DNA of 28,205 nucleotides from Gammaproteobacteria bacterium (GCA_041601315.1 JBFIIJ010000001.1:1-28205), one strand, 5' to 3'. Shown: positions 1 to 18,649, counted from the stretch's first letter. Numbers and translations: made by a program. The notes: generated from the letters alone by a model not told the origin.

Positions 1-2589
1 GCGATTGAGCTTACGGCTGAATTTCTTGAAACGGGTGCAGAGTTTTTCTTCACTGGTAATTTTTAATACCATTTCAATGGTGAGATTGTACTCTTCAACA
101 ATCATATTGAAGACGGTGTCTCTTATGGCTTTGTCTTCAACCAATTCTGAATAGGCTTTCGCTACTTCCATATCAACCAACGATAAAGTTTTTTCTGTTT
201 CGTCCATGACTAAACGAAAGATGCGTGATTCTTCAAACATCTTGTTAATCATCGCTTCACCTTCTGCACCACGTTCTTCGATGAAGTTCTTCAATGCCGA
301 TCCAACGCCATACCAACCGGGCACCAGATGTCTGTTTTGTGTCCAGGCAAAGACCCAGGGAATCGCTCTTAAGTCGCTTAGAGAATTTGCACCGAAACGT
401 TTGGCAGGTCGCGAACCAATGTTCATTTTCGCCAGTTCTTCTACTGGACTGGCGGCATTGTAGTATTTAACCAGACCTTCTGTTTCGGCTAGCTCTCTGT
501 ATTTTGTAAAAGCGAGATTCGATAAGGTTTCCATTGCTTCATCAAATTTCGGATGCGGTTTTAATTCATCTTCGTTTAATGACTTAATCGTATGTTCAAA
601 TACGCTCGCGGCGAGTAATTCCATTTGGTATTGCGCCGTACCTTCGTTGGCGTATTTTGAAGAGACCACTTCACCTTGTTCGGTAATTCGCATTTGGCCG
701 TGTATTGAACCGGCAGGTTGTGCTGCTATTGCGCGTCCTGTTGGCGCACCACCGCGACTCACTGAACCACCACGTCCATGGAAGAAGGAAATGGGAACAC
801 CCGCTTCCTCGCCTGTTTTAGTCAGGTTCGCTTGTGCTTTGGTTAATTCCCAGTTGGCAGTGAAGTAACCACCGTCTTTATTGGAATCGGAATAACCAAT
901 CATGACTTCTTGCGTGCCGGTTTGTGCTTGTACTGATCGTTTGACGACAGGAAGACTGAGTAATTCTTTCATCATTTCCGGTGCGCGTTGTAGATCATCA
1001 ATGGTTTCGAATAAAGGTACGATAGGTAGACGGCTGAATTCTTCACCTTTATCACCAGCAAACAAACCAGACAGTTTTGCCAGTACATAAACACCTAATA
1101 TGTCGTTAACCGATTGCGTCATACTTAAGATGGCATGACCGAAGGCTTCTCGATCCAGTTTTTTCATCATCTTCGCTGACATCTGGAACAACCCTAATGT
1201 CGATGTTGATTTTTCATCTAGATTAGAAAACGTGGGTAACTTTTTACTTAACGGTTTATCAAGCTCTTCTAGTAACCATGACTTCCATTCATCACTGTCT
1301 GCAGCAGGTGCTTCGTCTTTACCTTGCATCGCTTTATAAATTGCAGTGAGTGTATTATTCGTTGTGGTTGAGTTTTCACGCAGATCAAGACGCGCGGTAC
1401 GAAAACGAAACGCTTCTGCTTCTTGTAATAAAGGCATGACGAAAGAGCGTGACAATTGTTTACAATCGGATTCTCTTAAACCAAACATCAATTGTTTTAG
1501 ATCACTGATGAATTCATCGGCATCAATATAACGAATACCGCTATAGTGCCCTTCTTCATCGTTATCCAGTGTGCCTTTTAATTTAATCAATATACAGGCA
1601 ACGAATTGACGAAACACTTCGCCCGGATTTCTTTCACTGATATGTTCTATCTCATCAATACCTTTTAATATTTCTTCAAGGTCTTGTTCAAACTTTTTTG
1701 ATACGGCAACGTTAGCGCGAGAGACACTAAGCTTTTCTACCATGTCTTGCAGTGATTCGATATAATGTTCCAGAACAGCATGACGATTTTTTAATAATGC
1801 ATCTTTGGTGACGTCATTGGTAACAAAAGGATTACCATCGCGATCACCGCCTATCCATGAACCAAATTGAAAAAAGGGTGGAATAGTAAAATCGGCATCA
1901 GGATAACTTTGTTTTAATGCCCACTTTAACTTTTCATGTGTTTCAGGAATACGTTTATACAATGTCTGTTCGAAGAAATGTAATCCCCAAACGACTTCTT
2001 GTGCAACAGAAGGTTTTACCAGTCTTAATTCACCGGTTAACCAAAGCAGATCAATTTCATTATTTAAATCAGCAATAAATTTTTCACGTTCGCGCGGTGT
2101 CCAACGTGTTGCTTCGATTCGATAGAGTAAGACATAGATGCGTCGATGAATTTCAAGTACGGTAATACGTTTTGCTTCTGTCGGATGTGCGGTAATCGTC
2201 GGACGAATGTGTGCAACATCTAACAGATCTTGAATTTCATTATTCTTAAGCCCTGCTTCTTTTGCTTGTTTGAATACATTAGCAAAGGTACCCGGCACAT
2301 TTTCCAGACCAAATTCTTTTTCAGCGAGTCGACGTCGACGCATGCCGGTATTTTCTTCAGCAACATTTAATAACTGAAACCAGATACCCCATGCCTGAAG
2401 CACACCCAGTAGTAGTTCGGTATTACCAGCAGGCACCGATTTTTCTCCTCGAAAGTACGGAAGAATTTCAGGGTGTCTGTGTTGAATTACGTTGCTGAGT
2501 TGATCAGTTAATAGCTCGACAACTTGTTTTGCATACGTTGCTGAACTTGCATCGAGCGACTGCTCATTAAAACCTACATCATTCGACAT
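1..2589 (-). CDS. ppc: Phosphoenolpyruvate carboxylase, 3'-truncated by the window edge (863 codons visible)
   Basis: Not in the ORF track because no stop lies in the window. Manual translation from ATG at 2589 (MSNDVGFNEQ...) gives, all in one frame, RPTITAHPTEAKR (~2170-2205), FGSWIGGDRDGNPFVT (~1820-1866), EVMIGYSDSNKDGGY (865-909) and FFHGRGGSVSRGG. Frame was spot-checked at these motifs, not codon by codon. Confidence 0.96.
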   Translation of the reverse strand, partial: MSNDVGFNEQSLDASSATYAKQVVELLTDQLSNVIQHRHPEILPYFRGEKSVPAGNTELLLGVLQAWGIWFQLLNVAEENTGMRRRRLAEKEFGLENVPGTFANVFKQAKEAGLKNNEIQDLLDVAHIRPTITAHPTEAKRITVLEIHRRIYVLLYRIEATRWTPREREKFIADLNNEIDLLWLTGELRLVKPSVAQEVVWGLHFFEQTLYKRIPETHEKLKWALKQSYPDADFTIPPFFQFGSWIGGDRDGNPFVTNDVTKDALLKNRHAVLEHYIESLQDMVEKLSVSRANVAVSKKFEQDLEEILKGIDEIEHISERNPGEVFRQFVACILIKLKGTLDNDEEGHYSGIRYIDADEFISDLKQLMFGLRESDCKQLSRSFVMPLLQEAEAFRFRTARLDLRENSTTTNNTLTAIYKAMQGKDEAPAADSDEWKSWLLEELDKPLSKKLPTFSNLDEKSTSTLGLFQMSAKMMKKLDREAFGHAILSMTQSVNDILGVYVLAKLSGLFAGDKGEEFSRLPIVPLFETIDDLQRAPEMMKELLSLPVVKRSVQAQTGTQEVMIGYSDSNKDGGYFTANWELTKAQANLTKTGEEAGVPISFFHGRGGSVSRGGAPTGRAIAAQPAGSIHGQMRITEQGEVVSSKYANEGTAQYQMELLAASVFEHTIKSLNEDELKPHPKFDEAMETLSNLAFTKYRELAETEGLVKYYNAASPVEELAKMNIGSRPAKRFGANSLSDLRAIPWVFAWTQNRHLVPGWYGVGSALKNFIEERGAEGEAMINKMFEESRIFRLVMDETEKTLSLVDMEVAKAYSELVEDKAIRDTVFNMIVEEYNLTIEMVLKITSEEKLCTRFKKFSRKLNR

Positions 2590-2664
2590 ATAATCTTATC
2601 CAGTAAAAAAACGAAATTGGTTCTTTGATAATAGACGTTTTTCGCCTAAAGCGCCTACTGTTGG

Positions 2665-2696
2665 ACGCGATAGCAAAGAAAAGTTTGCTATCGCGT
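2665..2696. other. Perfect 13-bp stem hairpin between the reductase gene and ppc
   Basis: ACGCGATAGCAAA-GAAAAG-TTTGCTATCGCGT. No U-tract follows on the transcribed (-) strand, so it is not a classic intrinsic terminator. Confidence 0.75.
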
Positions 2697-2721
2697 AAAT
2701 TTAACCTAGAAAGTTGTTTAG

Positions 2722-3696
2722 CTATGCTACGCGGTCGTCTGGTTCTTCACCATCGAAAAATGCTTTCACATTTGCTAATGAACGTAAGCCCATTGCAACA
2801 CGTGTTTCTGTTGTTGCGCTACCAAGATGTGGTAACAGCACTACGTTTTCCATGCTAAGCAAGTCTTCTGTAACGGTTGGTTCTTTGGCAAACACATCAA
2901 GACCTGCACCCGCAATAACGCCGTCTTTTAGTGCTTGAACCAATGCGGGTTCATCAACCACATCACCACGTGCAGTATTAATCAGGAATGCGTGTTTTTG
3001 CATCATTCCCAAACGTTCTTTGTTCATCAGGTTGGAATTGCTACCGCCACCGGGGCAATGCAGGGTGACGTAGTCAGCACCTTTCAATACATCTTCAACC
3101 GTATCCAGTTTGGTTGCGCTGAATTTTTTAATCACTTCATCTGATGGTGGATACGGATCAAAAAAGCTGATCTCCATACCAAAACCAAAATGTGCTTTTT
3201 GAGCTACGGCTTGTGCGATACGACCAAAACCAATAAAACCGAGTTTCTTACCCGTTACTTTGGTTGCCAAAAAGTGCGTTGGACACCAGCCATCCCACTT
3301 CTTGTCACGAACTAAACGTTCACCTTCACCGATACGACGCGAAACCGTCAACAATAAACCCATTGCGATATCAGCAGTACAATCCGTCAAGACTTCAGGA
3401 GTATTGGTAACAACAACACCGGCTGCTTTCGCATCATCGGTATTGATGTTGTTAAAACCAACGCCAAAGTTAGAAACAATTTTGCATTTGCGATCATCTG
3501 CACCAAATATTTCCGAGTTAATTTGAAAATCAGAAACTGTAGGACAGACTGCATCATAATTGCGCATTGCTTCTTTGAGTTCGTCGACCGACATTTTGTG
3601 GTCGTCTTCGTTCAAAGTAACGTCGAACAGTTCTTGTGCTTTAGCTTCTGCTTCAGCTGGCCATTTTCGTGTTAAAAGAACCTTAGGCTTACTCAC
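2722..3696 (-). CDS. D-2-hydroxyacid dehydrogenase, GhrB/GyaR-like (glyoxylate/hydroxypyruvate reductase), probably NADH-preferring
   Basis: VSNFGVGFNNI, Rossmann GFIGFGRIA followed by FFDPY (acidic residue suggests NAD), catalytic R/E/H in NTARG, KEP, PHLGS. GTG start with AGGAG 8 nt upstream. Confidence 0.9.
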   Translation of the reverse strand: MSKPKVLLTRKWPAEAEAKAQELFDVTLNEDDHKMSVDELKEAMRNYDAVCPTVSDFQINSEIFGADDRKCKIVSNFGVGFNNINTDDAKAAGVVVTNTPEVLTDCTADIAMGLLLTVSRRIGEGERLVRDKKWDGWCPTHFLATKVTGKKLGFIGFGRIAQAVAQKAHFGFGMEISFFDPYPPSDEVIKKFSATKLDTVEDVLKGADYVTLHCPGGGSNSNLMNKERLGMMQKHAFLINTARGDVVDEPALVQALKDGVIAGAGLDVFAKEPTVTEDLLSMENVVLLPHLGSATTETRVAMGLRSLANVKAFFDGEEPDDRVA

Positions 3697-3728
3697 TTAC
3701 TCATCTCCTGATTTTTATTATTTTATGA

Positions 3729-3778
3729 CCGCCATGAGTGGCGGAAATACTGGCAATGCAGTCATGCCATTGCCAGTA
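3729..3778. other. Tandem intergenic hairpins between mtkB and the reductase gene
   Basis: CCGCCA-TGAG-TGGCGG (3729-3744) and TACTGGCAATG-N9-CATTGCCAGTA (3748-3778). Confidence 0.7.
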
Positions 3779-3796
3779 CAGTGCCATCATTATCTA

Positions 3797-4687
3797 TTAA
3801 CCAGCTTTAGCTAATACTTCCTGCACAACAGGAGCAAATGATGATGGATTTGGTACAACATGAACGCCACATTCTGTCAGTATTTCTACTTTTTCAGCAG
3901 CACTATCGCCAACCGCAGAAATAATCGCGCCAGCATGACCCATACGAGTACCTGCAGGTGCCGTTAGACCAGCAATGTAACCAATCACCGGCTTGGACAT
4001 ATTTTCTTTTGCCCACATTGCGGCTTCTACTTCTTGTGGTCCACCAATCTCACCGATGATAACCACTGCTTTGGTTTCTGGATCTTCTTCAAACGCCATC
4101 AAATGATCTTTGAAAGAACTACCGTTGATAGGATCACCACCAATACCAATACTGGAAGAAATACCAATACCCACTTCTTTCATTTGTGAGGCTGCTTCGT
4201 AACCTAAGGTACCGGAACGACCAACAACACCGACATTACCCGGCATATAAATATGACCTGGCATAATACCCATCATACATTTTCCAGGACTGATTGAACC
4301 TGCACAGTTAGGACCGGTTAGAATCATGCGTTCTTCTTTCTTATAACGACGCATGTAACGCTTAACGCGGATCATGTCTTGTGAAGGAATACCATCGGTG
4401 ATTGCGACACAAAAACGAATGCCTGCATCAGCGGCTTCCATAATACTGTCTGCTGCAAACGGTGGTGGTACAAAAATGATACTCGCATCTGCACCAGTCG
4501 CTGCGACCGCTTCTTTCATAGTATTGAATACCGGTTTATCAAGATGTTTAGAACCACCCTTACCCGGTGTTACACCACCAACAATGTTGGTGCCGTACTT
4601 AATCATATCAGTCGCATGGAAGGTTCCAATTTGACCGGTAAAGCCCTGTACCAGGACTTTTGTATTTTCTGTTAAATGAATTGCCAT
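3797..4687 (-). CDS. mtkB: Malate-CoA ligase (malate thiokinase) alpha subunit, SucD paralogue
   Basis: True start MAIHLTENTK at 4687 (AAGGGGA SD-like upstream). MtkB-type motifs QDMIRVKRYMRRY, VGRSGTLGYEAASQM, GGDPINGSSF; phospho-His motif MGHAGA; adjacent to mtkA and mcl. Confidence 0.88.
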   Translation of the reverse strand: MAIHLTENTKVLVQGFTGQIGTFHATDMIKYGTNIVGGVTPGKGGSKHLDKPVFNTMKEAVAATGADASIIFVPPPFAADSIMEAADAGIRFCVAITDGIPSQDMIRVKRYMRRYKKEERMILTGPNCAGSISPGKCMMGIMPGHIYMPGNVGVVGRSGTLGYEAASQMKEVGIGISSSIGIGGDPINGSSFKDHLMAFEEDPETKAVVIIGEIGGPQEVEAAMWAKENMSKPVIGYIAGLTAPAGTRMGHAGAIISAVGDSAAEKVEILTECGVHVVPNPSSFAPVVQEVLAKAG

Positions 4688-4700
4688 GTTTTGTTTCCCC

Positions 4701-5879
4701 TTACTTCTTACCGGTTGCGTCTTTCCAGGCAGCGACCGCTTTATCAGCAGCTTCCTGTAAGGTATCAGCCATAATGATTGGAAGGCCACTGTCTTTTAAG
4801 ATCTTACGACCTTCTTCAACATTGGTACCCGATAGTCGACAAACCAATGGCACTTTTAAATCAATAGACTTAACGGCTTGCACAACACCTTCTGCAATCC
4901 AGTCACAACGATTAATACCAGCAAAGATGTTAACGAGAATACATTCAACTTTGTCATCTGAGAGAACAAGGTTAAACGCTTTGGTTGTACGTTCAGGAGA
5001 AGCGCCACCACCAATATCAAGGAAGTTGGCTGGCTCACCACCGGCGTGCATGATCATATCCATGGTTGCCATAGCTAAACCGGCACCGTTAATAATACAA
5101 CCAATGTTACCGTCTAGACCGACATAACTTAAACCACGATCTGCTGCGCGCATTTCGCGTGCATCTTCTTGTGACTTATCGCGTAACTCTGCAATGTTGC
5201 TATGACGGAACAGTGCGTTGTCATCAAAACCCATCTTCGCATCGACTGCGATGATGTTGCCTTCTTTGGTAACGACCAAAGGATTGATTTCAACCATGTT
5301 CGCATCTAAATCACGCATCGCACGATAACAACCGAGGAAGGTGGTTACGGCTTGATTGATTTGTGCTTTATTTAAACCTAATGCAAATGCAATTTCACGC
5401 GCTTGAAATGGTTGCATACCGACTGCTGGTTCAACGGCAATCTTGATTATCGATTCCGGTTTTTCAACAGCGAGTTGTTCGATCTCCATACCACCTTCGG
5501 CAGAAGCAACAACGGTGACACTTTCATTTGCACGATCAAGTACAAAGGCAAGATAGATTTCGCGGTCAATATTACAACCCGCTTCGATATATAAACGATG
5601 ACAAACTTTGCCTTGCGGACCGGTTTGATGCGTTATTAATTTTTTACCGAGTAATTCATTTGCTGCGTCTGATACTTCTTTTTCAGATTTACAAACTTTA
5701 ATGCCACCGGCTTTACCTCTTGCGCCAGAATGAATTTGAGCTTTAACAACCCATACTTCTCCACCAATTTCTGTTGCGCGGTAAGCAGCCTGTTCAGGGC
5801 TATATGCTAAACCACCCGCACCAATCGGTATGCCATAGTCTGCGAGTATTTCTTTCGCTTGATATTCATGGATGTCCAC
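4701..5879 (-). CDS. mtkA: Malate-CoA ligase (malate thiokinase) beta subunit, SucC paralogue
   Basis: [10 protein letters not shown]..., [46 protein letters not shown] (MtkA-like variants of the SucC motifs). GTG start with GGAGG upstream; operon context with mcl and ppc. Confidence 0.88.
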
Positions 5880-5924
5880 TAGGTCACCCTCCTATACTTT
5901 ATTTAAAAATTTTTGATTAACGAT

Positions 5925-6872
5925 TTATTTAGCAGCGATTTGATCCGCTTGCGCAATGAGATTGCGTGCCATTTTTTCAGACGCAATATCAATCATCTTG
6001 CCATCAAGTTGTGCTGCACCTGCGCCACTCTTAGCCGCTTCTTCTAACGCTTCTAATACGCGACGTGCATGAGTCACAGCTTTCTCCGGTGGAGACATCA
6101 CTTCATTCGCTAATGGAATTTGCTTAGGATGAATTGCCCACTTACCGTCGTAACCGAGCGCTGCAACACGACGTGCCGCTGCTTTATAAGCTTCAGGATC
6201 ACTGAAATCTCCAAAAGGACCGTCAATGGCACGTAAACCAAAAGCACGACATGCGGTTAGCATTTGTACTTGTGATGTATGCCATTGATCATTTATCGCA
6301 CCTTCACAAACATAATCTGGATTTAAACCGCCGATAATGGTGGTACGTGAACGCATACTTGCCGCGTAATCACCCACACCAAAGTGGAATGCTTCAAGAC
6401 GCTTACTTGAGGTCGCTATAGACATAACATTTGCACCACCAAGCGCTGTTTCGATTAAACATTCAAAACCAATTCTTTTCTCGAGACCCATCGCATCTTC
6501 AACTTGCGTCGTTAACATATCGACAGCGTAGACATCTGCTGCTGTACCGACTTTAGGAATCAAAAAGGTATCGAGATTTTTACCCGCTTTTTCGATGACA
6601 TCGACGACATCGCGATACATATAATGAGTATCTAAACCATTTATACGCACAGATATTGTTTTACCACTCCAATCAAGATCATTTAATGCATCAATCACAT
6701 TTTTTCGGGCTTGTGGTTTGTCAGGCGGTGCAACGGCATCTTCTAAATCAAGAAACACGTAATCAGCTTCACACTTTGATGCTTTTTCAATCATTCCTGT
6801 GTCTGAAGCCGGGACTGCTAGCTCACTACGCTGTAAGCGTGGAGTAGCGGGTTCGTATGAAGTAAAACTCAT
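5925..6872 (-). CDS. mcl: Malyl-CoA lyase (HpcH/CitE family, MclA-like)
   Basis: True start MSFTSYEPATPRLQRSELAVP at 6872 (GAGGA upstream). Motifs FLDLEDAVAP, RINGLDTHYMYRDV, LIETALG, IDGPFGDFSD, GKWAIHP match the Methylobacterium MclA pattern as recalled. Confidence 0.93.
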   Translation of the reverse strand: MSFTSYEPATPRLQRSELAVPASDTGMIEKASKCEADYVFLDLEDAVAPPDKPQARKNVIDALNDLDWSGKTISVRINGLDTHYMYRDVVDVIEKAGKNLDTFLIPKVGTAADVYAVDMLTTQVEDAMGLEKRIGFECLIETALGGANVMSIATSSKRLEAFHFGVGDYAASMRSRTTIIGGLNPDYVCEGAINDQWHTSQVQMLTACRAFGLRAIDGPFGDFSDPEAYKAAARRVAALGYDGKWAIHPKQIPLANEVMSPPEKAVTHARRVLEALEEAAKSGAGAAQLDGKMIDIASEKMARNLIAQADQIAAK

Positions 6873-6910
6873 AGTTATTCCTCTTTTTATCAATATAATT
6901 TAAATAGTTA

Positions 6911-6941
6911 GTTCATAAGATTCAGCATGAATCTTATGAAC
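6911..6941. promoter_or_regulatory. Perfect 14-3-14 inverted repeat 39 nt upstream of mcl (candidate operator or 5' UTR hairpin)
   Basis: GTTCATAAGATTCA-GCA-TGAATCTTATGAAC. Confidence 0.6.
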
Positions 6942-7075
6942 GAGCATTCTTCGTGTTACGTAGGGATGCTTGAGCTGCAGACATATCATCTACATAAAAT
7001 AAATTCGTTATATTGTCGATGCTGCTAGTAGCATCCAGGCTAGCTTGTTAGCATTAATTCTATTTTTATATTTAA

Positions 7076-7088
7076 AATCAATAGCTTA
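7076..7088 (+). promoter_or_regulatory. IHF-consensus site in the mcl upstream region
   Basis: AATCAA-TAGC-TTA matches WATCAANNNNTTR exactly and is preceded by an A/T tract; chance matches are plausible in AT-rich DNA. Confidence 0.45.
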
Positions 7089-7258
7089 TATTATCATTCT
7101 TTTTCAGTGCTATAAACTGTGAGCTATGTCTCAAAATTCGAGCGGGCTATTCTGCCACAAGTCGCACCTGCAAATCCATCGTATGATCAATTACCTATCG
7201 AAAGAAATATTTCATTCTTTCAATAATGATTCAGGTAAGATATTAGTCTTTGATTTTA

Positions 7259-8446
7259 TTAGGAAATACTTGAAAAACCTCTGTCCAGGTCCCGTTTTAA
7301 GTCTTCAATATCTTCCAATCCAACTGAAAGACGGATCATTTGCGGTTTGATACCGGCTTCTTCCCGCTGCTCATCAGTGAGTCGATGATGCGTTGTCGTA
7401 GCAGAATGCGTAATGGTACTTTTTGTATCACCTAAATTGGCAGTTATCGAAAATAACTCTGTAGAATCAATAATATGCCAAGCTGCTTCTTTACCGCCGC
7501 GCACTTCAAAACTAAGCAATCCACCGAACCCGTTTTGCTGGTCTTTGGCTAATTGATGCTGCGGGTGTGACTCAAGACCGGGATAATAAACCTTCTCGAC
7601 TTTGTCATGCTGTTCTAACCACTGCGCTAATAATAAGGCATTTTCACAATGCGCTTTCATACGAACATGCAATGTTTCCAATCCTTTCAGAAAAACCCAG
7701 GCATTAAATGGGCTCATTGATGGGCCGGCCGTACGTAAAAAGCCAAAAATATCGTCTTTTAGTAAGTCATTACTACCAACAATAGCCCCGCCCACACAAC
7801 GTCCCTGACCATCAAGGTACTTTGTTGCTGAATGAATGACGATATCCGCACCGAACTCAAACGGTTTTTGTAATATGGGTGTACATAAGCAGTTGTCCAC
7901 GACTAACAGGCAATCATGTTTATGGGCAATCTCGGCTAAACGCGCAATATCGGCTATTTCGGTCAAGGGATTGGAGGGTGTTTCCAGAAAAAGCAGACGT
8001 GTTGCTGGCGTAATGGCCTGTTCCCAGGCGTCATAATCGATTAAATCAACAAATGTCGTTTCAATACCATATTTACTCAATACATTATCGAAAAGGCCCA
8101 CAGTGGTACCAAAAATGGCTCGCGATGAAACCAGATGGTCACCTGCCTTTAATAGACCCAGACATGTGGTCAAGATTGCACTCATTCCAGAAGACGTACC
8201 AATACAACGTTCGCCCCCTTCCATTGCGGCTAAACGCTCTTCAAACGTTCTAACAGTCGGATTGGTAAACCTTGAATAGATATTACCGGGAGCATCGCCA
8301 CTGAATCGTGCTGCGGCTTCTGCAGCATTTTCGAAAACAAAGCTGGAACTAGCGAATATAGGCTCGCTGTGTTCGCCCTCGTGTGTTCTCACCTGCCCTG
8401 CGCGAACTGCCAGAGTATTTGTACCTAAATTATTTTTATCAGACAT
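7259..8446 (-). CDS. metZ: O-succinylhomoserine sulfhydrylase (PLP-dependent Cys/Met metabolism family)
   Basis: True start MSDKNNLG at 8446 (AGGAG upstream). Motifs EHSEPIFASSSFVF, YSRFTNPTV, SGMSAI, PLP lysine HSATKYLDGQGR, SITANLGDTKSTITH, IRLSVGLED. Confidence 0.92.
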   Translation of the reverse strand: MSDKNNLGTNTLAVRAGQVRTHEGEHSEPIFASSSFVFENAAEAAARFSGDAPGNIYSRFTNPTVRTFEERLAAMEGGERCIGTSSGMSAILTTCLGLLKAGDHLVSSRAIFGTTVGLFDNVLSKYGIETTFVDLIDYDAWEQAITPATRLLFLETPSNPLTEIADIARLAEIAHKHDCLLVVDNCLCTPILQKPFEFGADIVIHSATKYLDGQGRCVGGAIVGSNDLLKDDIFGFLRTAGPSMSPFNAWVFLKGLETLHVRMKAHCENALLLAQWLEQHDKVEKVYYPGLESHPQHQLAKDQQNGFGGLLSFEVRGGKEAAWHIIDSTELFSITANLGDTKSTITHSATTTHHRLTDEQREEAGIKPQMIRLSVGLEDIEDLKRDLDRGFSSIS

Positions 8447-8519
8447 CGTCGATCTCCTAAATAATGAATTAGTTTTAAGAGTCAGCCTGAGTAGATAGTT
8501 CTGAGAGATTGCAGGTTGT

Positions 8520-8571
8520 CTCTTTAGCGGTATTTTTAGTGCGCCCGCAAGCTGATTTTCAAATCGGCGCA
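8520..8571 (-). ncRNA. SAM-II riboswitch aptamer upstream of metZ
   Basis: UGCGCC-GAUUU-GAAAAUCAGC-UUGC-G-GGCGCA-CUAAAAAUACC-GCUAAA-GAG: 6-bp P1 (UGCGCC/GGCGCA), conserved GAUUU, UUGC, A-rich linker and GCUAAA of the SAM-II (SAM_alpha) class, upstream of a methionine biosynthesis gene. Confidence 0.88.
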
Positions 8572-8583
8572 TTACTATTGAAG

Positions 8584-8709: not shown

Positions 8710-10005
8710 TTGGCCACATCAATGAAAGCACCTGTCGGTGGTAGAAAAATCTCAATTCGAAATGGAAAATTAAACGTTCCTGATACGCCTGTTATTCCTT
8801 ATATAGAAGGTGATGGAATTGGTCCAGATGTATGGCAAGCCTCACATCGAGTTCTTGATGCCGCTGTCGAAAAAGCATACGGCGGTAAAAAAGAAATAAA
8901 GTGGCTTGAAGTATATGCCGGTGAAAAAGCGAATAAATTAACGGGAAATTGGTTGCCCGACGAAACGGTTGAAACCTGTCGAGAGTTTCTGGTTTCTATT
9001 AAAGGACCTTTAACCACACCGATTGGTGGTGGCATTCGATCGTTGAACGTTGCATTAAGACAAATACTGGATTTGTACGTTTGTTTAAGACCGGTTCGAT
9101 GGTTTAAAGGTGTTCCCTCTCCAGTTAAACAACCCGAATTGATCGACATGGTTATCTTTCGTGAAAACACTGAAGATATTTATGCGGGTATAGAGTTTGA
9201 ACAAGGAACAGATGAGAATGCAAAATTCCTTGAGCTTTTCAAAGAAGCTTTTCCTAATCATTATCAAAAAATCAGATTCCCAAAATCATCAGGTATAGGT
9301 ATTAAACCGATATCCCGTGAAGGCACACAACGTTTAGTTCGTGCTGCTATAAAATATGCTATCGATAACGGTCGCAAGAGTATTACCTTTGTTCATAAAG
9401 GTAACATTATGAAATTTACTGAAGGTGCTTTTCGTAATTGGGGTTATGAACTTGCAGAAACGGATTTTAAAGATCAAACCTATAGCTGGGATATCTGGGA
9501 ACGCACTCGTGCAGAAAAAGGAACACAAGCGGCACAGGATGAAATGGCACAGGCAGAAAAAGACGGAAAAATTCTGGTTAAAGACGCGATTGCAGACATT
9601 ACCTTGCAACAAGTATTAACCCGACCCAGTGAGTTTGATGTTATCGCAACTATGAATTTGAATGGCGATTATCTTTCTGATGCACTTGCCGCTCAGGTAG
9701 GCGGTATTGGTATTGCGCCGGGCGGTAATATTAATTACGACACCGGACATGCCATCTTTGAAGCAACGCATGGAACTGCACCTAAGTATGCCAACCTGGA
9801 TAAAGTTAATCCGGGTTCTTTATTACTGTCTGGTGAAATGATGTTGCGCTATCTGGGTTGGACTGAAGCTGCTGATATGGTTATTAATGCAATGGACAAA
9901 ACGATTGCTGATAAAACTGTTACTTATGATTTTGCTCGCTTGATGAAGGGTGCAAAAGAAATCAAATGCAGTGAATTTGCGGATGCTTTAATTTCTAATC
10001 TCTAA
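8710..10005 (+). CDS. icd: NADP-dependent isocitrate dehydrogenase (homodimeric prokaryotic type)
   Basis: [25 protein letters not shown] (phospho-Ser equivalent S111, codon 9040-9042), [25 protein letters not shown] determinants HGTAPKY and [11 protein letters not shown] start with AAGGAG 7 nt upstream (alternative ATG at 8722). Confidence 0.97.
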
Positions 10006-10029
10006 AACTTATAAACGAGTTATACGACT

Positions 10030-11760
10030 ATGTCGGAAAGAGATCTGATTGCTGAATGCTCGCAGATAATATACGACGGGTTTATTCGATATAACAGCGA
10101 CTTTCATCGAATGACAAAACGTGCGCGGACACGTTTTGAACAACGCGATTGGAAAGGCCATCAACAGGATATTGTTGATCGTATAGATCTTTATGAAAAA
10201 TCAGTACGGCGTGCCGTTCTCGCTTTGCGTACTCTCCTTGACTACCGTGTTAATGATGAACATCTCTGGCATGAAATAAGAAGTTATTTTTCTGATCGTT
10301 TAAATGAAGTTCCTGATAATGATTTCATAAAAACGTTTTTCAATTCAACGACTCGTCGTATTTTCGGAACCGAAGGTATCGACCCTGATATTGAGTTCAT
10401 TTCATCCGGGCCATCAGATGATCTTCGACTAATTATGTCGCTTAATATTCGTCGTTATCCTTACTGGGGCTCACTTAAAAAAATATTTCAAACCATTCTT
10501 GATGATTTTTCATTTCGAATTCCTTATGACGACGTAGACAAAAATGCAGAACGTATTGCCAAAGTAATTGAAGCACATTCAAAAGAACACGTTGATGATG
10601 ATGTTGAATACTTACGTTTTGAATTTATCGATACATTCTTTTATCAAGCTGCACGAGCCTATCTGGTTGGAAAACTAATTCTTAGTGAAGATGAAGTGCC
10701 TATTGTCATTGCGTTTAAAAATGAACAAGGAGGCATTAGTGTTGATGCCGTTTTTCTTGATGAAAAAGAGATCAGTCTTATTTTTGGTTATACCCGTTCT
10801 TATTATTTTGCTGACCCAAACTCAGTCATTGGTGCTGTTCACTTTCTCAAATCGATACTTCCTAAAAAACCAATCGATGAACTTTATACTGTATTGGGTC
10901 GTTTACGTCAGGGTAAAACAGAACGTCATCGAACATTCACTCAACATCTTAATAACACGCGGGATAAATTTATTCATGCAGAAGGTGACACAGGCCTTGT
11001 CATGATCGTGTTTACATTACCTTCTTACAATCTTGTCTTTAAAGTCATAAGAGATAAGTTTGGTTATCCAAAAACAGTTTCAAGAAACGATGTAATAGGA
11101 AAGTATAAACTTGTATCAAAGCATGACCGTGCGGGAAGACTTATCGATACACAGGAATTCCTGAATCTGGAATTTCCATTAAACCGTTTTTCCAGAGAGC
11201 TTAGAGAAGAATTACTTGATGCCGCATCAGAGAGCGTAAAAAAAGAAAATAATAATTTATTATTACAACATGTCTATATTGAAAGACGAGTGCGTCCATT
11301 AAATCTATATATAAATGAAGTTTCTTATGAAGAAGCTGTTTCTGCTGTGGTTGATTATGGTCAGACTATTAAAGATTTGGCTCAAACAAATATATTTACT
11401 GGTGACCTGTTATTAAAGAACTTTGGCGTGACTCAACATAACCGGGTTATCTTTTATGATTATGATGAAGTTGCTCTGGTAACCGAATGCAATTTTAGAG
11501 ACATTCCTGAAGCAAGTGACTTTGAAGATGAAATGCTGGCCGACACCTGGTACTTCGTTGCTGAGAACGATATTTTTCCGGAAGAGTTTATTCGCTTCCT
11601 TTCAATGAATGATGAATTAAAAATGGAATTTATGAAATATCACAAAGATTTGTTAACCGCTGAATATTGGCGACAAGTTCAACAACAACACTTAAGGGGA
11701 GAAGTTTCATTGGTTGTTCCCTATACATCGACAACGTCAAAACTTAATACGTTCGATTAA
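10030..11760 (+). CDS. aceK: Isocitrate dehydrogenase kinase/phosphatase
   Basis: RARTRFEQRDW, IFGYTRSYYF, GRLRQGKTE, LVFKVIRDKF (ATP-binding Lys), HDRAGRLIDTQEF, GDLLLKNFGVT, VIFYDYDE, DIFPEEF. Starts 24 nt after icd. Confidence 0.95.
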   Translation: MSERDLIAECSQIIYDGFIRYNSDFHRMTKRARTRFEQRDWKGHQQDIVDRIDLYEKSVRRAVLALRTLLDYRVNDEHLWHEIRSYFSDRLNEVPDNDFIKTFFNSTTRRIFGTEGIDPDIEFISSGPSDDLRLIMSLNIRRYPYWGSLKKIFQTILDDFSFRIPYDDVDKNAERIAKVIEAHSKEHVDDDVEYLRFEFIDTFFYQAARAYLVGKLILSEDEVPIVIAFKNEQGGISVDAVFLDEKEISLIFGYTRSYYFADPNSVIGAVHFLKSILPKKPIDELYTVLGRLRQGKTERHRTFTQHLNNTRDKFIHAEGDTGLVMIVFTLPSYNLVFKVIRDKFGYPKTVSRNDVIGKYKLVSKHDRAGRLIDTQEFLNLEFPLNRFSRELREELLDAASESVKKENNNLLLQHVYIERRVRPLNLYINEVSYEEAVSAVVDYGQTIKDLAQTNIFTGDLLLKNFGVTQHNRVIFYDYDEVALVTECNFRDIPEASDFEDEMLADTWYFVAENDIFPEEFIRFLSMNDELKMEFMKYHKDLLTAEYWRQVQQQHLRGEVSLVVPYTSTTSKLNTFD

Positions 11761-16937: not shown

Positions 16938-17510
16938 TTATTTAGCGACGACTACCATCGCTGGTCTGACTAATCTACCGTTTAACTCATAACCTTTTTG
17001 CATTACTGTCACGACGGTACCTGACTCAGAACCTTCTATTTCCTGCATAGAAATTGCCTCGTGTTGTTCAGGATTAAATTTTTCATTAAGAGGGTCTATT
17101 TCTTTTACGCCAAATTTTTCTATGGCACTGATAAACATTTTCAAGGTTAAATCCATACCCTCTCGTAATTCATCAACAGTTTCAGCACTTTCGGCAGCCG
17201 TCATACCTAAACTTAAACTATCCATTATCGGTAAGAGTTCATGGACGAATTTTTCCAGGGCATATTTATGTGCGCTTTCTATATCGCGAGCTGTTCGCTT
17301 ACGCAGATTTTCCATTTCGGCTTGTGCTCTAAGCGCTGCATCACGATTTGCCTGAGCGTTTTCTTTTTCTTTTTCCAAGAGCGCCTGTAACGTTTCAATA
17401 TCTAATTCCGGTTCTCCTAATGGGACCATATCGTCACTGACATTTTCTTGCTGTTCAGCTACTTCGTTATTCTCTTCTTCCTGAACAGTATCGTTTTCTT
17501 CACCTGACAT
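16938..17510 (-). CDS. grpE: Nucleotide exchange factor GrpE
   Basis: RAQAEMENLRKR, ELLPIMDSL, FNPEQHEA, QKGYELNGRLVRPAMVVV. Confidence 0.98.
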   Translation of the reverse strand: MSGEENDTVQEEENNEVAEQQENVSDDMVPLGEPELDIETLQALLEKEKENAQANRDAALRAQAEMENLRKRTARDIESAHKYALEKFVHELLPIMDSLSLGMTAAESAETVDELREGMDLTLKMFISAIEKFGVKEIDPLNEKFNPEQHEAISMQEIEGSESGTVVTVMQKGYELNGRLVRPAMVVVAK

Positions 17511-17577
17511 TATTTATTTAACCTCTTTGTTTAGACAATAGATTCCCTACGCCTTGCTTGCTGGGCGCGCATTCGTT

Positions 17578-17607
17578 TATGTGGGGATTAATTTTTTGAG
17601 TTCAAGG
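17578..17607 (-). promoter_or_regulatory. Sigma32 (RpoH) promoter for grpE, overlapping the hrcA 3' end
   Basis: CCTTGAA-N14-CCCCACATA, a near-perfect sigma32 consensus. Confidence 0.85.
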
Positions 17608-18649
17608 CGGCGCCGAGCATTTTAGCCGTAATATCGACAATAGGGATAATACGTTCATAATGCATCCGTGTTGGCCCTATTACGCCTAAAACTCCCAGTA
17701 TTTGACCATCAGCCTCATAAGGTGATGTCACTACACTGCATTTATCAAGAACGTCATAACCTGATTCTTCACCAATAAAAATCTGCATTCCATTGGCATT
17801 AATGGCCTGTTCAAGCAAATGTAGGATATCTCGCTTTTGATTAAATGATTCAAATAATTTCTTTAGTTTGTCAGCTGCACCTAGTTCAGCAACATCCATC
17901 AAATTGGTTTGACCGGAAAAAAGTAAATCGTCATTTTTATCTTTTGTTGTATCACTATCGAGCGCTTGCTGTGCCATCTCTATGGCAGACTGCATAGACT
18001 GGTTAACCTTTTCTTTCATTTTTTCCAGTTCATCCAAAATGGATTTTCGAACTTGAGTCAGATCTTTGCCTGCGAAAAGCTCATTTAGATAATTCGATAT
18101 TTTTTGTAATTCCGACGTGGAATAAGTTTTATCCGTATTAATTATTCTGTTTTGAACTTCCCGATCATTAACTACCAGAATCACCAGCACTCGGTTTGAT
18201 GATAAGGCAACAAATTCGATATGTTGCAAAATAGATTGCTTGGGTCGCGGCAACATTACGACGCCCGCTAATTGCGTCACATCCGATAACATTGAAGATG
18301 CGCGTAGCATCAACGAAGAATATTCACTCTCCGGCGCCAATTCTCGTGCGATTTTCTCAACTTGAGATGAATTCAGATCATTCACTCGTAACAGGCTATC
18401 AACAAACAATCGGTAGCCTTTCGCTGTCGGGATTCGTCCTGCCGAGGTATGTGGCGAATGTAATAATCCGACATCCTCAAGATCAGCCATCACGTTACGA
18501 ATTGTCGCCGGGCTCAAGCCCATATTTGAATCTTTAGACAGTGTCCGAGAACCAACTGGCGTGCCATCCTCAATGAAATGCTCCACCAGAGCCTTGAATA
18601 ATTGAAGGCTACGGTCTGATAATTGTGAAGAATCTGTAGTTGAAGCCAT
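17588..18649 (-). CDS. hrcA: Heat-inducible transcription repressor HrcA
   Basis: PVGSRTL, SPATIRNVMADLE, HTSAGRIPT..GYR.FVD, GVIGPTRM; canonical position upstream of grpE. Confidence 0.97.
   Translation of the reverse strand: MASTTDSSQLSDRSLQLFKALVEHFIEDGTPVGSRTLSKDSNMGLSPATIRNVMADLEDVGLLHSPHTSAGRIPTAKGYRLFVDSLLRVNDLNSSQVEKIARELAPESEYSSLMLRASSMLSDVTQLAGVVMLPRPKQSILQHIEFVALSSNRVLVILVVNDREVQNRIINTDKTYSTSELQKISNYLNELFAGKDLTQVRKSILDELEKMKEKVNQSMQSAIEMAQQALDSDTTKDKNDDLLFSGQTNLMDVAELGAADKLKKLFESFNQKRDILHLLEQAINANGMQIFIGEESGYDVLDKCSVVTSPYEADGQILGVLGVIGPTRMHYERIIPIVDITAKMLGAALNSKN

Follow-up and report, generated by a model that had tools for sequence, protein, structure and literature searches.

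The 28,205-nucleotide contig analysed here (the window: JBFIIJ010000001.1, positions 1-28205, of Gammaproteobacteria bacterium GCA_041601315.1) carries five genes, head-to-tail on the minus strand of positions 1-6872, for malyl-CoA lyase (Mcl), the two subunits of malate thiokinase (MtkA and MtkB), a hydroxypyruvate reductase (Hpr)-type enzyme and phosphoenolpyruvate (PEP) carboxylase (Ppc). Together they are likely to form the operon at the core of a serine cycle of the isocitrate-lyase-positive type, in an uncultured, methanol-using marine gammaproteobacterium that has lost sgaA, the gene for serine:glyoxylate aminotransferase (SGAT), and in which the transamination is most likely carried out by AT5b, an SGAT-like class-V aminotransferase of 456 amino acids (aa) encoded 3' of ppc in relatives. 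Comparison with these relatives shows that the operon is a derived, shortened form of an ancestral sga-mcl-mtkA-mtkB-hpr-ppc(-AT5b) operon. The pathway and the six-gene operon were already known; what is new is the variant that lacks sgaA, carries AT5b and has a distinct mcl allele.

Methanol and other one-carbon (C1) compounds constitute a large flux of marine carbon, and the known C1-using gammaproteobacteria are mostly ribulose monophosphate (RuMP)-pathway organisms, such as Methylophaga and the methanotrophs. The lineage described here is common in marine metagenomes and, judged by gene content, would rely solely on an isocitrate lyase-type serine cycle fed by the methanol dehydrogenase XoxF. 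Its sgaA-less form offers a concrete and testable case in which a defining enzyme of a textbook pathway appears to have been replaced by a distant paralogue, and AT5b is a new candidate component for serine-cycle engineering.

Gene identities in the operon

The window covers contig C1 completely; the contig belongs to genome G000, a 2.69-Mb assembly of 477 contigs (38% G+C, 94% complete, 2% contamination). A preliminary description, made from the sequence of the window, had placed five co-oriented genes at positions 1-6872, and their coordinates proved exact:

6872-5925, minus strand: mcl, malyl-CoA lyase, allele of the sgaA-less type (ATG start)
5879-4701, minus strand: mtkA, malate thiokinase beta subunit (GTG start)
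4687-3797, minus strand: mtkB, malate thiokinase alpha subunit (ATG start)
3696-2722, minus strand: hpr-type gene, D-2-hydroxyacid dehydrogenase (hydroxypyruvate/glyoxylate reductase; GTG start)
2589-1, minus strand: ppc, PEP carboxylase (ATG start; 3' end cut by the contig end)

Mcl belongs to the HpcH/CitE family, and its closest solved structure is the Methylobacterium malyl-CoA lyase 5UGR (431 bits, full length), with 325 bits against 4L9Y and approximately 100 bits against citrate lyase beta. On the haloarchaeal NCBIfam model, the sole curated one for Mcl, it scored 119 bits (cut-off 500), a model that is uninformative here. MtkA scored 708 bits on the malate--CoA ligase beta model NF010647 (cut-off 604) versus 540 bits for the host's own SucC on the same model, and MtkB is of the SucD type (NF004230, 423 bits). 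A separate sucCD pair on contig C353 is 51% and 55% identical to the operon's MtkA and MtkB, and in the MtkA tree the operon protein groups in the Mtk clade, with the host's own SucC as a long outgroup branch to all Mtk. The operon genes are thus assigned to true Mcl and Mtk and not to SucCD, an outcome that the preliminary description would have counted against its reading, and Mtk is predicted to act on malate rather than on succinate.

The reductase is less specifically placed by curated models, scoring 278 bits for glyoxylate reductase and 209 bits for GhrB, both under the cut-off. Among proteins of known structure in the PDB, it matched archaeal glyoxylate reductases at approximately 235 bits and the Hyphomicrobium D-glycerate dehydrogenase 1GDH, a serine-cycle enzyme, at 217 bits, and its orthologues occupy the same operon position in relatives (59-90% identity). 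Ppc is a normal bacterial PEP carboxylase (PF00311, 773 bits; NF000584, 759 bits) that lacks approximately 50 C-terminal residues at the contig end and is 74% identical over residues 1-850 to the 912-aa Ppc of relative L020. As the contig ends inside ppc, the region past this gene cannot be read directly in G000; the stretch between ppc and AT5b is variable, which may explain the contig break.

Loss of sgaA and its candidate replacement

In relatives, the locus reads aceK-icd (on the opposite strand), metZ, sgaA, mcl, mtkA, mtkB, hpr, ppc and then AT5b. The two places that matter for a comparison with G000 are the following:

6873-7258, minus strand: metZ-mcl spacer of 386 bp, the site of sgaA and a terminator in relatives (synteny across L020-L031)
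Contig C224, L108:868-2241: AT5b

No orthologue of sgaA was found anywhere in G000, where the best match is AT5b at 29-32%, and tblastn recovered no remnant of the gene in the metZ-mcl spacer or the rest of the genome. An sgaA orthologue is likewise absent from ten related genomes, namely G004 (one contig), G023 (two contigs, 100% complete), G001, G006, G007, G010, G015, G017, G021 and G022, and because all of these, two of them essentially closed, show the absence as well, it does not reflect an assembly gap. Between sgaA-less genomes, hpr has a ratio of nonsynonymous to synonymous substitution (dN/dS) of 0.05-0.06, indicating strong purifying selection, and this constraint, together with the retention of a glycerate kinase, argues that hydroxypyruvate is still made.

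The alignment of AT5b to SgaA from relatives runs from end to end, with 30% identity, and both the SQK motif with the pyridoxal phosphate-binding lysine and the substrate-binding arginine are kept. Its best match by sequence among solved structures is the serine:glyoxylate aminotransferase 6PK1 (108 bits), with AGXT enzymes at no more than 65 bits. Similarly, its AlphaFold model (mean predicted local distance difference test, pLDDT, 85.9) is most similar to 6PK1, with a target-normalised template modelling (TM) score of 0.91, followed by a serine:pyruvate aminotransferase. Compared with SgaA as represented by 6PK1 (Arabidopsis AGT1), AT5b shares the class-V fold, the SQK lysine motif and the C-terminal arginine but differs in its low identity (25-30%) and in approximately 45 extra N-terminal residues, which are modelled at low confidence. 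Among 1.84 billion cluster representatives, AT5b retrieved its own cluster and fragments only, and then proteins of at most 34% identity, and no homologue was found beside serine-cycle genes outside the family in the 80 loci fetched. AT5b is thus an orphan subfamily with members in this bacterial family only. The sole other class-V candidate in G000, on contig C386 (L119), was rejected as PhnW/AepZ; it adjoins a gene for phosphonopyruvate decarboxylase, an arrangement that suggests 2-aminoethylphosphonate biosynthesis.

The distribution of the two aminotransferases was compared across 21 Mcl-bearing genomes of the family. SgaA alone was present in seven of these and AT5b alone in 11, while three encoded both and none (0/21) lacked both. 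In a RecN tree used as a proxy for the species tree, all ten genomes of the clade holding G000 (10/10) lack sgaA and carry AT5b, and the state of sgaA changes at least three times, always in AT5b carriers. This pattern is as expected for gain of AT5b, coexistence and then displacement of SgaA, and, with the fold and active-site residues described above, it makes AT5b the most likely replacement for SgaA in the transamination.

Most sgaA-less genomes also share an unusual Mcl. A fully supported clade (100/100) on a long branch unites the proteins encoded in the window and in L039, L032 and L024, a grouping that MtkA rejects (approximately unbiased test, p-AU 0.0002, for a group picked after the identities had been seen). 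DNA identity to these loci is highest over mcl (84-95%) and drops on both sides, and synonymous divergence is 0.30-0.65 in mcl versus 0.5-3.6 in the downstream genes. Three residues that do not vary among 32 other Mcl from several phyla are changed in this allele (G22A, A167G and E242D), and it has H268 and A284 at two sites that are occupied by R or K in all the others; most family-invariant columns are otherwise kept. Genome G023 (the source of L032) belongs to another genus and its RecN is 47% identical to that of G000, yet identity reaches 94% for Mcl and 91% for AT5b, exceeding the values for most or all genus mates of G000, with lower identities for the genes between (MtkA 82%, MtkB 81%, Hpr 79% and Ppc 61%). 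These identities, set against that of RecN, indicate that mcl and AT5b moved laterally within the family. The link between the allele and the loss of sgaA is not absolute, as the sgaA-less G001 and G010 keep the ordinary mcl allele. It is conceivable, and we propose it only tentatively, that the glyoxylate node has been rewired in an abundant family of ocean methylotrophs, with AT5b displacing SgaA at least two or three times and arriving with an Mcl allele changed at three universally invariant positions, and with both genes moving between genera as a functional pair, which would suggest co-adaptation (e.g. in the handing over of toxic glyoxylate).

One-carbon gene content and the direction of the pathway

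The remainder of the genome encodes the apparatus for C1 oxidation and for supplying a serine cycle. XoxF, the lanthanide-type methanol dehydrogenase, is encoded on contig C240 (closest solved structure XoxF 6DAM, 725 bits); when 24 other genomes of the family were searched, 17 had an orthologue. Contig C5 carries a complete tetrahydromethanopterin (H4MPT) block of fhcCDAB, mch, an MtdB-type gene, mptN and the gene for beta-RFAP synthase, and four paralogues of Fae are encoded on C5, C10, C114 and C424. For the tetrahydrofolate (H4F) branch, fchA adjoins an MtdA-type gene on C69, and formate-tetrahydrofolate ligase (FTHFS; ftfL) is present but split across two contigs. Serine hydroxymethyltransferase (SHMT; glyA), malate dehydrogenase (Mdh) and a glycerate kinase of the GlxK/GarK type are also present in G000, where no match to a MOFRL-type glycerate kinase was found. 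Isocitrate lyase scored above cut-off on C48, and malate synthase G is also encoded. The 2.7-Mb genome holds four paralogues of the MtdA/MtdB type (Mpt_N), on C5, C69, C153 and C261, of which the C261 copy contains an in-frame TAG and the C153 copy has neighbours without an NCBIfam match. In addition, a second pyrroloquinoline quinone (PQQ) dehydrogenase of 579 aa is encoded on C211 (L107; TIGR03075, 448 bits, below cut-off) beside a 579-aa major facilitator superfamily transporter, and further PQQ-dehydrogenase fragments lie on C447 and C410.

Searches for other assimilation routes gave negative results. Hexulose-phosphate synthase (Hps) was not found in G000 and eight genus mates, one of them a single contig (the positive control being an unrelated gammaproteobacterium), RuBisCO was not found in G000 and five genus mates, and pmoA had no match in G000, a weak negative as control genomes were silent too. 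Crotonyl-CoA reductase (Ccr) of the ethylmalonyl-CoA pathway was not found in G000, so regeneration of glyoxylate here would use isocitrate lyase. The gene content fits an isocitrate-lyase-positive serine cycle fed by methanol. The preliminary description had correctly noted that sgaA, glyA, gck and mtdA/fch lie outside the window, and the genome-wide check it proposed recovered xoxF, mtdA/fch/ftfL, glyA, a glycerate kinase and an aceA-type isocitrate lyase. Its suggestion of a full serine cycle therefore holds for these genes and for Fae, H4MPT and mdh, but not for canonical sgaA, which is missing genome-wide.

In the route proposed, methanol would be oxidised to formaldehyde by XoxF and formaldehyde to formate by Fae and the H4MPT enzymes, after which FtfL, Fch and MtdA would convert formate to methylene-H4F, and GlyA would combine this with glycine to form serine. 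Serine would be converted to hydroxypyruvate, which Hpr would reduce to glycerate, and glycerate kinase and enolase (the latter assumed, as it was not among the genes searched) would lead to PEP. Ppc would then carboxylate PEP to oxaloacetate and Mdh would reduce this to malate, which MtkAB would activate to malyl-CoA for cleavage by Mcl into acetyl-CoA and glyoxylate. Glyoxylate would be returned to glycine by transamination, most likely by AT5b, and acetyl-CoA would pass through citrate and isocitrate to yield a second glyoxylate via isocitrate lyase. The adjacent AceK and Icd may partition isocitrate toward isocitrate lyase.

Several observations weigh against this route. Canonical SgaA, a defining enzyme of the serine cycle, is not present, and its candidate replacement scored 186 bits on the closest curated model (cut-off 650) and is only 30% identical to it. 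The reductase is under every curated cut-off, and its specificity for hydroxypyruvate is only predicted. Malate synthase G is an alternative sink for glyoxylate, and the assembly of G000 is 94% complete and in 477 contigs. The co-distribution of AT5b and sgaA loss represents at most three independent events, which are too few for a valid test; Fisher's test (p = 0.001) ignores relatedness and is not relied on, and phylogenetic pairs provide two to three contrasts. Adjacency of AT5b and ppc is not demonstrable in G000, contig C1 ending inside ppc, and directly upstream of AT5b on C224 lies a toxin-antitoxin-like pair (Gp49, HigB-like, and HTH_37; L108:19-542). In L039, the closest species representative, ppc is followed by an AbiC-like gene (17298-18134) and not by AT5b within the 2.3 kb available.

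An alternative is that the cycle was left open when sgaA was lost, in which case the operon would serve only to turn PEP and CO2 into acetyl-CoA plus glyoxylate or glycine, AT5b would have an unrelated role and C1 compounds would serve mainly for energy. Partial serine cycles have been reported in gammaproteobacterial methanotrophs, e.g. the Methyloprofundus symbiont (PMC10199937), the coexistence of AT5b and SgaA in three genomes means that AT5b may have a function of its own, and isocitrate lyase and malate synthase permit heterotrophic growth. However, methanotrophs with partial cycles assimilate carbon via RuMP, and neither Hps nor RuBisCO was found here. Moreover, hpr and glycerate kinase have been kept, with hpr under strong constraint in the sgaA-less genomes, and none of the 21 Mcl-bearing genomes lacks both aminotransferases, all of which makes an open cycle unlikely.

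A second alternative is suggested by the enzymes themselves, since Mcl and Mtk are reversible. Glyoxylate, from isocitrate lyase or glycolate, could be condensed with acetyl-CoA by Mcl and malate released by Mtk with a gain of ATP, an energy-conserving bypass of malate synthase for the assimilation of two-carbon (C2) compounds in which the reductase would handle excess glyoxylate. The absence of sgaA, the presence of isocitrate lyase and AceK and the conservation of aceK-icd as a neighbour would all be compatible with such a role. However, ppc in the same operon supplies the forward direction, malate synthase G is present and makes a bypass unneeded, the ancestral operon starts with sgaA, and the genome is equipped for C1 oxidation with no other route of C1 assimilation found; we therefore regard operation in reverse as improbable. 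The malyl-CoA-glycerate (MCG)-like route raised by the preliminary description, in which PEP and bicarbonate would yield acetyl-CoA and glyoxylate and glyoxylate would return to PEP via glyoxylate carboligase (Gcl), tartronate semialdehyde reductase and glycerate kinase, was not borne out and is very improbable, for although G000 encodes Ppc, Mdh, Mtk, Mcl and a glycerate kinase, no Gcl was found (best TIGR01504 match 349 bits versus a cut-off of 711, with below-cut-off matches at a similar level in 13 of 14 control genomes).

Genomic setting, distribution and comparison with known serine-cycle loci

Upstream of the operon, and within it, the following further features were identified:

7259-8455 (start approximate), minus strand: metZ, O-succinylhomoserine sulfhydrylase (NF006003, 690 bits), a conserved upstream neighbour outside the operon
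8710-11760, plus strand: icd-aceK pair, in the same neighbourhood in L020, L027, L029, L036 and L039
2590-2721, minus strand: hpr-ppc spacer with two hairpins (fold -33.9 kcal/mol)

The backbone around the operon had been described as ordinary, and the neighbours are indeed housekeeping genes (metZ, icd-aceK, dapB, dnaJ-dnaK-grpE-hrcA, nadK, recN and a resistance-nodulation-division, RND, pump). Upstream of metZ, at 8503-8580 on the minus strand, is a SAM-II riboswitch (SAM_alpha, RF00521; 40.2 bits, gathering score 36), and there is a promoter-like TTGACA-N17-TATTTT at 8612-8584. The metZ-mcl spacer matched no Rfam family. It contains a perfect 14-3-14 palindrome (31 bp, 6911-6941) that is located 39 nt upstream of mcl and is single-copy in the genome; its pairing is not strictly kept, as L039 and L024 conserve the left arm but have two to three changes in the right one. 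A block of approximately 80 nt in the same spacer (around 7100-7180, minus strand) is well conserved in L039, where the flanking spacer is not. In sgaA-bearing relatives, a strong terminator-like hairpin lies between sgaA and mcl (L020:8870-8935 and L023:4157-4292), and sgaA may therefore form its own or an attenuated transcription unit there. Within the operon, the hairpin at approximately 2639-2665 in the hpr-ppc spacer is a short repeat that recurs on C223, C104, C29, C217 and C64 (blastn-short), and the mtkB-hpr spacer (3697-3796) likewise holds a hairpin-forming element.

Operons of this kind are widespread. The sga-mcl-mtkAB-hpr-ppc arrangement also occurs in many other uncultured Gammaproteobacteria and in one Gemmatimonadales genome, dozens of uncultured species conserve the operon, and of 400 gammaproteobacterial genomes drawn evenly, 42 have an MtkA that scores above cut-off (a count that takes in G063, an unpublished genome). 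More than 100 cluster representatives from marine metagenomes are 88-97% identical to MtkA and are labelled 'Thiotrichaceae bacterium' or 'Gammaproteobacteria bacterium', some of them on closed contigs of 2.7-2.9 Mb. Given the MtkA count and the presence of the six-gene core in many uncultured Gammaproteobacteria, there is nothing unusual in the operon itself for this part of the tree, and the statement in the preliminary description that a full serine cycle is uncommon in Gammaproteobacteria stands for cultured strains only. Searches of the literature on marine Gammaproteobacteria with xoxF and a serine cycle found no paper on this lineage. Priest et al. (bioRxiv 10.1101/2022.08.12.503524) described a pelagic 'Thiotrichaceae' genus, GCA-2705445, with methanethiol oxidase (MTO) and H4MPT; the present lineage was not equated with it, as no SBP56/MTO gene was found in G000 and five genus mates.

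Among named organisms, the nearest relatives within the gammaproteobacterial clade are the Methylococcales with a partial serine cycle (MtkA 69-74% and Mcl 61-66% identical), in which hpr-sga is divergent from mcl-mtkA-mtkB. These methanotrophs assimilate carbon by RuMP and have ppc outside the cluster, whereas here ppc is part of the operon, and neither Hps nor pmoA was found. The qsc clusters of Methylobacterium/Methylorubrum extorquens AM1, which are laid out as sga-hprA-mtdA-fch and mtkA-mtkB-ppc-mcl, share with G000 Mcl, MtkAB, an Hpr-type enzyme and Ppc, as well as a C1 supply via H4MPT and H4F. In contrast to AM1, G000 has one compact operon, mcl-mtkA-mtkB-hpr-ppc, without sgaA, with mtdA/fch elsewhere and with a glycerate kinase of the GlxK/GarK type in place of the MOFRL type. 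The difference in gene order from Methylobacterium that the preliminary description had pointed out was confirmed, as the order in alphaproteobacterial loci is either mcl(-) mtkA mtkB ppc or else mtkA mtkB hpr mcl. The closest counterpart is the six-gene operon of uncultured Gammaproteobacteria, with which the present locus shares gene order, neighbours (metZ with its SAM-II riboswitch, and icd-aceK) and 74-97% protein identity, and from which it differs in that sgaA and the terminator are missing, the mcl allele is distinct and AT5b is the only SGAT-like gene left.

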